Of a stretch of DNA of 64,000 bases, positions 14,964 to 15,091 are shown in pieces. Source of the stretch: Escherichia coli. GTDB lineage: Bacteria; Pseudomonadota; Gammaproteobacteria; Enterobacterales; Enterobacteriaceae. Within the stretch, counting starts at the first letter, position 1. Each line of letters opens with the position of its first letter. The notes under the pieces were generated by a model. The model had not been told where the DNA came from and searched no databases. It saw only the letters and a list, made by a program, of their open reading frames with translations. The translations under genes and the position numbers were made by a program. The stretch lies in assembly GCF_003334785.1 (NCBI RefSeq), contig NZ_QOWV01000017.1; one strand, 5' to 3'.

Positions 14964-15027
14964 CCAGTATCCCCACTGTTATTGTTACTATTTAAAATCA
15001 AATTCGTAACAATTAAGACACATTTTA

Positions 15028-15047
15028 TATTGAACGTCCAATCAATA
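15028..15047. promoter_or_regulatory. dyad-symmetric element TATTGAACGTCCAATCAATA in the betT-betI divergent promoter region; candidate BetI (TetR-type) operator
   Basis: Arms TATTGA/TCAATA read directly, 45 bp upstream of betI start; assignment to BetI is inference. Confidence 0.4.
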
Positions 15048-15091
15048 ACCGCTTTAATAGATAAACACCGCTGATGAATGGAGTGGCGAAA

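Follow-up and report, generated by a model that had tools for sequence, protein, structure and literature searches.

The betT-betI spacer of Escherichia coli: a probable BetI operator over back-to-back promoters and a predicted ArcA direct-repeat site on the betT side

The DNA analyzed here, hereafter the window, is a stretch of 64,000 nucleotides which belongs to the chromosome of E. coli, and the region of interest is the spacer between the divergent genes betT and betI. In the RefSeq annotation betT, encoding a choline transporter of the BCCT type, is placed on the minus strand, and betI, betB, and betA follow one another on the plus strand. The betT coding sequence (12930-14963, minus strand) is backed by its open reading frame, by RefSeq and by the NCBIfam profile NF007399, with 1314.8 bits against a cutoff of 695. 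The betI coding sequence (15092-15679, plus strand) is assigned by NCBIfam and RefSeq to a choline-responsive repressor of the TetR family, and the profile scores identify its product as a true BetI (NF001978, 306.8 bits, cutoff 118; TIGR03384, 268.2 bits, cutoff 201.3), with both BetI and BetT lying above the curated equivalog or subfamily cutoffs of NCBIfam. The spacer occupies positions 14964-15091, between the betT start codon, which ends at 14963 on the minus strand, and the betI ATG at 15092, and has a length of 128 bp and a G+C content of 34%. The open reading frames and the RefSeq annotation thus confirm the 128-bp divergent betT/betI region described in the initial annotation, which had been made from the sequence alone. 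A 701-bp query across the spacer (14700-15400) is 100% identical to betT/betI of E. coli K-12 MG1655 and of many other strains, and was matched in 5182 of 5426 complete E. coli genomes. The locus is the same as the betT/betIBA region of K-12, with no sequence difference and with the ArcA site discussed below identical letter for letter. In the E. coli genome search, ten of the matching places of the betT-betI region are located on a plasmid rather than on the chromosome.

Relatives of this locus were collected through a BetI protein scan with one genome per species, which returned 80 Enterobacterales loci (BetI identity 94-63%) and one from Stutzerimonas. Spacers from 76 loci, Stutzerimonas among them, were compared together with that of the window, giving 77 in all. 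Wherever upstream DNA was available, betT was found divergent and upstream of betI. Genera whose BetI is closest to that of E. coli (Enterobacter, Klebsiella, Raoultella, Trabulsiella, and others) have a spacer of 128 bp. In more remote genera it is about 280-440 bp long, and the sequence outside the motif conserved throughout (see below) is unalignable there. Position-by-position comparisons refer to an alignment of 34 spacers of the 128-bp group, all from Enterobacteriaceae.

The start point of betT transcription can be placed from published data. The ArcA site has been located at -18 to +25 relative to the betT start site (Park et al., 2013, Table S6), which sets +1 at 15005, a G on the minus strand, and the full-length betT transcript, in the form of a synthesized mRNA, has been described as starting with GAATTTGATTTTAAATAGTA (Sim et al., 2014), the sequence of the minus strand from 15005 onward. 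The position is therefore supported by two independent papers and leaves a 5′ untranslated leader of 42 nt (14964-15005, minus strand). From this start point, a -10 hexamer CTTAAT (15017-15012) is predicted, which together with an extended -10 TG (15020-15019) covers 15012-15020 on the minus strand, and the -10 columns are invariant across the 34 aligned genera and species. A spacer of 18 nt would connect CTTAAT with a -35 hexamer TTGGAC (15036-15041, minus strand), which reads TTGAAC in those relatives that carry a perfect palindrome at this position. For betI, the predicted -35 hexamer is TTGAAC (15030-15035, plus strand), which is invariant, followed after 17 nt by a putative -10 TTTAAT (15053-15058, plus strand), which is kept as TTTAAT, TCTAAT, or TTAAAT in the alignment. 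The betI -10 was placed from this spacing and from the published distance of approximately 42-88 bp between the ArcA site and the betIBA start site (Park et al., 2013, Table S6), and the predicted betI start at about 15065-15066 agrees with that distance. A consensus scan for promoters and terminators over 14850-15200 returned no sigma-70 match at its thresholds, which are too strict for weak hexamers such as these, and the promoters were therefore placed from the published start points, with hexamers that are weak and that we infer from spacing. Two start points were reportedly mapped 61 bp apart in work of 1996, in agreement with this layout.

Two inverted repeats in the spacer had been singled out in the initial annotation as candidate operators, and both strings are located exactly as stated, TATTGAACGTCCAATCAATA at 15028-15047 and ATTGTTAC-N17-GTAACAAT at 14981-15013. 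The former (dyad 1, TATTGA-N8-TCAATA) is an inverted repeat with arms of only 6 bp, at 15028-15033 and 15042-15047, and the latter (dyad 2) is a perfect 8-bp inverted repeat, with arms at 14981-14988 and 15006-15013, which can be extended to arms of 13 nt at 85% complementarity. Both are unchanged in the five E. coli alleles sampled, in which single-nucleotide polymorphisms fall at 14989, 15005, 15068, 15088, and 15106; the second of these is the betT +1 base, with a plus-strand C>A change in strains A26 and Esc7. When the spacer was shuffled 5000 times under a first-order Markov model, with the gap limited to 20 bp, inverted repeats with arms of at least 6 bp were present in 57% and with arms of at least 8 bp in 7%, so that neither of the drawn symmetries is beyond chance by itself. 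Since such symmetries alone prove nothing, the case must rest on conservation and experiment. The pairing of dyad 1 is complete (6/6) in only two of the 34 aligned spacers, and that of dyad 2 is complete (8/8) in E. coli only, with 4-6 of the 8 pairs in the 33 other species. The proposal of two dyads was therefore accurate in its coordinates, but its symmetries are weak when compared to shuffled sequence and neither is conserved as drawn. What is conserved instead, judging by the alignments, is a different palindrome within the first string (15029-15042) and a direct-repeat pattern across the second, and it is these elements, rather than the drawn ones, that conservation and the literature on the K-12 bet region support.

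The palindrome within dyad 1, hereafter the betI box, reads ATTGAAC/GTCCAAT (15029-15042, the slash marking its axis at 15035/15036) and lies inside the string together with flanking bases. It is present in all 77 spacers as ATTGAACGT[C/T/G]CAAT, with 13 of its 14 positions invariant, and the sole variable position, 15038, is C in 44 spacers, T in 31, and G in 2. With T at this position the box becomes a perfect 14-bp palindrome, ATTGAACGTTCAAT (ATTGAAC/GTTCAAT), as found in 31 of the 77 spacers, and in several Brenneria and Ewingella genomes and in Stutzerimonas the palindrome is longer still, TTGATTGAAC/GTTCAATCAA or a close variant. The E. coli box retains six of the seven symmetric pairs, A15033/C15038 being the single asymmetric one. 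The distance from the box to the betI ATG ranges from 61 to 190 bp across the 77 spacers. In the 64-kb window the box is unique at up to one mismatch, and a search of the window for a second copy returned none at that level, with matches of two or three mismatches occurring at chance frequency. The comparison of the 77 spacers thus fixes the BetI half-sites and their axis, ATTGAAC/GTYCAAT, at 15035/15036, as opposed to the axis of dyad 1 at 15037/15038. In 32 of the 34 aligned relatives the outer right arm TCAATA reads TCAAAA, and just two retain complementarity of the outer pair 15029/15046; the symmetry of dyad 1 is accordingly not the conserved one. The suggestion that one of the dyads is a plausible BetI operator holds in so far as the conserved box lies within the first string, but the axis had been misplaced and the outer arm is not conserved. 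The left half of the box holds the predicted -35 hexamer of betI and the right half that of betT. A BetI footprint of 21 nt, said to extend over both -35 boxes, was reportedly obtained in 1996. Genomic SELEX (SELEX-chip) together with gel shift assays has identified the betI-betT spacer as the single genomic target of BetI (Shimada et al., 2018).

On the betT side of this box, an ArcA site has been published with the sequence ATGTGTCTTAATTGTTACGAATTTGATTTTAAATAGTAACAAT (U00096.2 328627-328669; Park et al., 2013, Table S4), which is the exact reverse complement of window positions 14981-15023. The same study has reported a ChIP-seq peak in both replicates (U00096.2 328597/328632), a 14-bit ArcA box at bet, and an increase of 5.9-fold for betT and 4.4-fold for betIBA in the arcA mutant (Park et al., 2013). 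The arrangement of the site as four direct repeats (DR) 11 bp apart on the minus strand is the PWM prediction of those authors within the ChIP-seq peak, with DR1 at 15023-15014, DR2 at 15012-15003, DR3 at 15001-14992, and DR4 at 14990-14981, and it overlaps the betT -10 and +1. DR1 and DR2 together form the 18-bp ArcA box ATGTGTCTTAATTGTTAC (15006-15023, minus strand). An 18-bp PWM was rebuilt from 114 other ArcA boxes published by Park et al. (2013), with the betT box excluded, and in this leave-one-out form the box scores 14.0 bits, third among approximately 128,000 window positions (training minimum 9.5, median 16.0). The two strongest matches in the window, both above the bet box, lie at 52389-52406 (minus strand, 17.6 bits, TTGTTAAAGATATATTAC) and 54028-54045 (minus strand, 15.2 bits). 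In Enterobacteriaceae the DR1-DR2 box keeps its distance to the betI box and scores 11.4-15.1 bits, including in genera with a replaced leader. The betT -10 and +1 could by themselves account for the conservation of 15006-15028. With a 7-nt PWM, the E. coli repeats score 2.4 bits for DR1, about 0 for DR3, and 4.7 for DR4, and DR4 is found in phase, at 4.0-6.6 bits, in most rows of the relatives with 128-bp spacers.

Dyad 2 falls wholly within this ArcA site. Its right arm corresponds to the DR2 core and to positions -1 to -8 of betT, and its left arm to DR4 in the betT leader. Across the 34 species with aligned 128-bp spacers, the left arm reads TTTGTAAC or TTTGCAAC and the right arm GCAACAAT or GTAACAAT, and in 33 of them G[T/C]AAC occurs on one strand in both arms, as a direct repeat with a period of exactly 22 bp, a spacing that would fit the phasing of ArcA repeats and not a dyad. 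The symmetry seen only in E. coli arises from substitutions at 14981 and 14986 relative to the other genera, with the pairs 14981/15013 and 14986/15008 being broken in 31 and 33 of the 34 sequences, respectively. When dyad 2 was examined as a palindromic operator, its symmetry was not maintained in the 34 aligned orthologous spacers. The initial annotation had suggested that the dyad not used by BetI could serve a second regulator, on the grounds that the bet genes respond to oxygen and osmolarity. An oxygen-linked regulator is indeed indicated at dyad 2 by the ChIP-seq peak, the ArcA box and the derepression in the arcA mutant, but ArcA reads direct repeats in 11-bp phase and not a dyad. Nothing in either dyad explains the osmotic control. 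As a BetI operator and an oxygen-linked second regulator are both found, the functional guesses were right and the structures proposed for them were not.

Several other readings of these elements have been weighed. A reading in which recognition takes place at the dyads as drawn, with BetI on TATTGA-N8-TCAATA and a second dimeric helix-turn-helix regulator on ATTGTTAC-N17-GTAACAAT, draws on their perfection in E. coli, their invariance in the five sampled alleles and the low frequency of 8-bp arms among the shuffles. This is nonetheless highly improbable, given that 15046 is A and not T in 32 of the 34 relatives, breaking its pair while the inner palindrome is kept throughout, and that dyad 2, incomplete outside E. 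coli, shows no pair changed on both sides; a gap of 17 bp between 8-bp arms is also atypical of a dimeric operator, and the ArcA ChIP-seq site already explains the region. Dyad 2 might alternatively act as a nucleic-acid structure, be it a betT leader RNA hairpin that affects translation or stability, or a cruciform driven by supercoiling and carrying the osmotic signal. The minus-strand RNA from 15020 to 14950 does contain the 8-bp stem in its minimum-free-energy fold (-14.1 kcal/mol), and the bet promoters are induced osmotically with no known protein factor, under a stress that is accompanied by changes in DNA topology. With betT +1 at 15005, however, the upstream arm (15006-15013, -1 to -8) is absent from the transcript. 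The fold is not unusual (z = -1.75, with 10 of 200 shuffles as stable), no pair has undergone compensatory change, the covariation score is the same as that of shuffled data, and of the eight pairs seven are lost in one or more relatives, including three that are lost in most. A scan of Rfam gave no match to the dyad 2 hairpin; its only matches at E ≤ 1 are two sub-threshold chance ones that fall within betT (14860-14955) and not in the spacer. An 8-bp A+T-rich stem whose loop is 17 nt long would also make a poor cruciform. Part of the osmotic control has been placed, in published work, at the RNA level and downstream, outside the spacer, in a hairpin at betT coding nucleotides 21-95 with tandem RNase III sites, which controls betT mRNA stability under osmotic stress (Sim, 2014) and corresponds approximately to window positions 14943-14869 on the minus strand, inside betT. 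Taken together, this makes a structural role for dyad 2 extremely improbable. The two weak Rfam matches overlie this RNase III hairpin region.

The remaining alternatives concern how much of the site ArcA uses, and in which geometry. ArcA might require only the 18-bp box (15006-15023), leaving the left arm (14981-14988) as non-functional leader whose complementarity to DR2 is due to chance. This is favored by the conservation of the DR1-DR2 box despite a replaced leader (Cedecea, Mangrovibacter, and Citrobacter koseri), by the restriction of left-arm conservation to the group with 128-bp spacers and by the near-zero score of DR3. Two observations render it unlikely: 33 of the 34 spacers of that group have GTTAC or GTTGC at a distance of exactly 22 bp to DR2, at 4.0-6.6 bits, and Mangrovibacter and some Citrobacter have GGTTAA or CGTTAA, in phase, where DR4 would be, at 7.7 bits. 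DNA on the betT side flanking the minimal 89-bp promoter fragment is also said, in work of 1996, to be required for ArcA control, which counts against the same reading. Since the substitutions at 14981 and 14986 made DR4 a perfect inverted copy of DR2, a head-to-head binding in the E. coli lineage can also be conceived, in which ArcA-P or another dimeric factor would occupy the betT leader in a manner unlike that of other Enterobacteriaceae; the left arm scores 9.4 bits as an inverted half-site (TTGTTAC, plus strand) as opposed to 4.7 as DR4. Such a geometry is considered quite improbable, and if true it would mean that the oxygen or osmotic response at bet differs in E. coli.

The spacer is thus very probably the classical E. 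coli bet control region, with a BetI operator over back-to-back -35 hexamers and an ArcA direct-repeat site on the betT side, the control elements of betT-betI being already known from work published between 1996 and 2013. According to this model, two divergent sigma-70 promoters with start points some 60 bp apart would have their -35 hexamers placed back to back, so that the two together form the 14-bp near-palindrome at 15029-15042 that serves as the operator of BetI. A single BetI dimer on this box would cover both -35 hexamers and jointly repress betT and betIBA, a repression that choline would lift. ArcA-P, bound to TGTTA-like repeats at 11-bp spacing (14981-15023), would lie over the betT -10, +1, and early leader and is expected to turn off both promoters anaerobically. 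Dyad 2 would then be a by-product of the ArcA site, its right arm being DR2 (TTGTTAC on the betT strand) and its left arm DR4, the core of which, GTAAC, happens in E. coli to be the reverse complement of GTTAC. From the present analysis come the identity of the sequence to the published sites, its pattern of conservation and the score of the ArcA box against the PWM. The literature supplies BetI binding to the spacer, ArcA occupancy by ChIP with repression that depends on arcA, and the start of betT; the hexamer assignments and a mechanism of steric occlusion are what we infer from these. The region is a textbook example in which two back-to-back promoters share one TetR-type operator, with a global redox regulator superimposed, and in it a visually striking 8-bp inverted repeat can be traced to a lineage-specific outcome of direct-repeat ArcA elements.

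Both elements can be compared with those of other systems. BetI1 of Ruegeria pomeroyi has been DNase-footprinted on ATTGACG/CGTCAAT (Appl Environ Microbiol 2025, PMC12442346). This box and that of E. coli are both 14-bp palindromes with ATTGA and TCAAT as outer bases and the same 4-bp length of the center, and both are attributed to a BetI-type repressor of the TetR family. The R. pomeroyi box overlaps a bet promoter -35, as the E. coli box is predicted to do. They differ in the central four bases, AC/GT in E. coli and CG/CG in R. pomeroyi, and the E. coli box, unlike its counterpart, is imperfect at 15038 and would serve two back-to-back promoters at once. A similar arrangement is that of TetR and tetO between tetR and tetA, where, as at bet, a dimer of the TetR family acts on a palindromic operator in a short divergent spacer and the gene of the regulator is controlled together with that of a transporter. 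Nonetheless, tet has two operators and bet one, and TetR leaves the DNA upon binding its inducer whereas BetI has been reported to remain bound in the presence of choline. With respect to ArcA, the ArcA-P sites at icdA, acs, cyoA3, and puuD (Park et al., 2013) resemble that at bet in having TGTTA-like repeats with an 11-bp center-to-center distance over the core promoter, and ArcA is a repressor at these multi-repeat sites as it is at bet. In strength the bet site is intermediate (14 bits, as compared to the training-set median of 16) and its layout is a predicted one, with the particularity that in E. coli the fourth repeat doubles as an inverted second.

Some further observations concern the spacer and its relatives. 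Cra has been considered as a direct regulator of bet. By eye, TTGAAC/GTCCAA of the betI box is two bases shorter than the Cra consensus, TGAAAC/GTTTCA, and does not fit that palindrome. Deletion of cra lowers bet expression in JM109, but the source paper reports no binding site, and the effect is treated as probably indirect. In Brenneria, Yersinia, Rahnella, and Ewingella, an ArcA-like box (for instance AAGTTAAATTTTTGTATA in Yersinia) is found approximately 27-44 bp from the betI box toward betT, that is, two repeat units (22 bp) farther from the betI box than in E. coli, which suggests that ArcA control has been retained while its site moved. In Y. similis, the highest score of any 18-mer in the spacer is 13.8 bits, and the 18-mer concerned may differ from the AAGTTAAATTTTTGTATA-type box.

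Two additional features touch on the leaders. A motif in the betI leader, CTGATGAATGGAG (15071-15083, plus strand), which includes the Shine-Dalgarno GGAG at 15080-15083, is nearly invariant in the alignment of 34 Enterobacteriaceae, with variable flanks. It contains an upstream ATG at 15074, which is in frame with betI in E. coli; in those relatives that have a leader shorter by 1 nt the frame is lost, and this ATG was therefore rejected as the true betI start. BetI reportedly undergoes post-transcriptional down-control, as described in 1996, and the conservation of the motif might be linked to this process. In E. coli E24377A (NC_009801.1), the betT-betI spacer carries an IS1A element (1679-2582 of the locus extracted from that genome) with an 8-bp target duplication, CAATTAAG. 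The insertion point corresponds to window positions 15010-15017, within the betT -10 and the ArcA box, and splits the betT -10, so that betT of this strain is cut off from its -35 hexamer and from the BetI operator.
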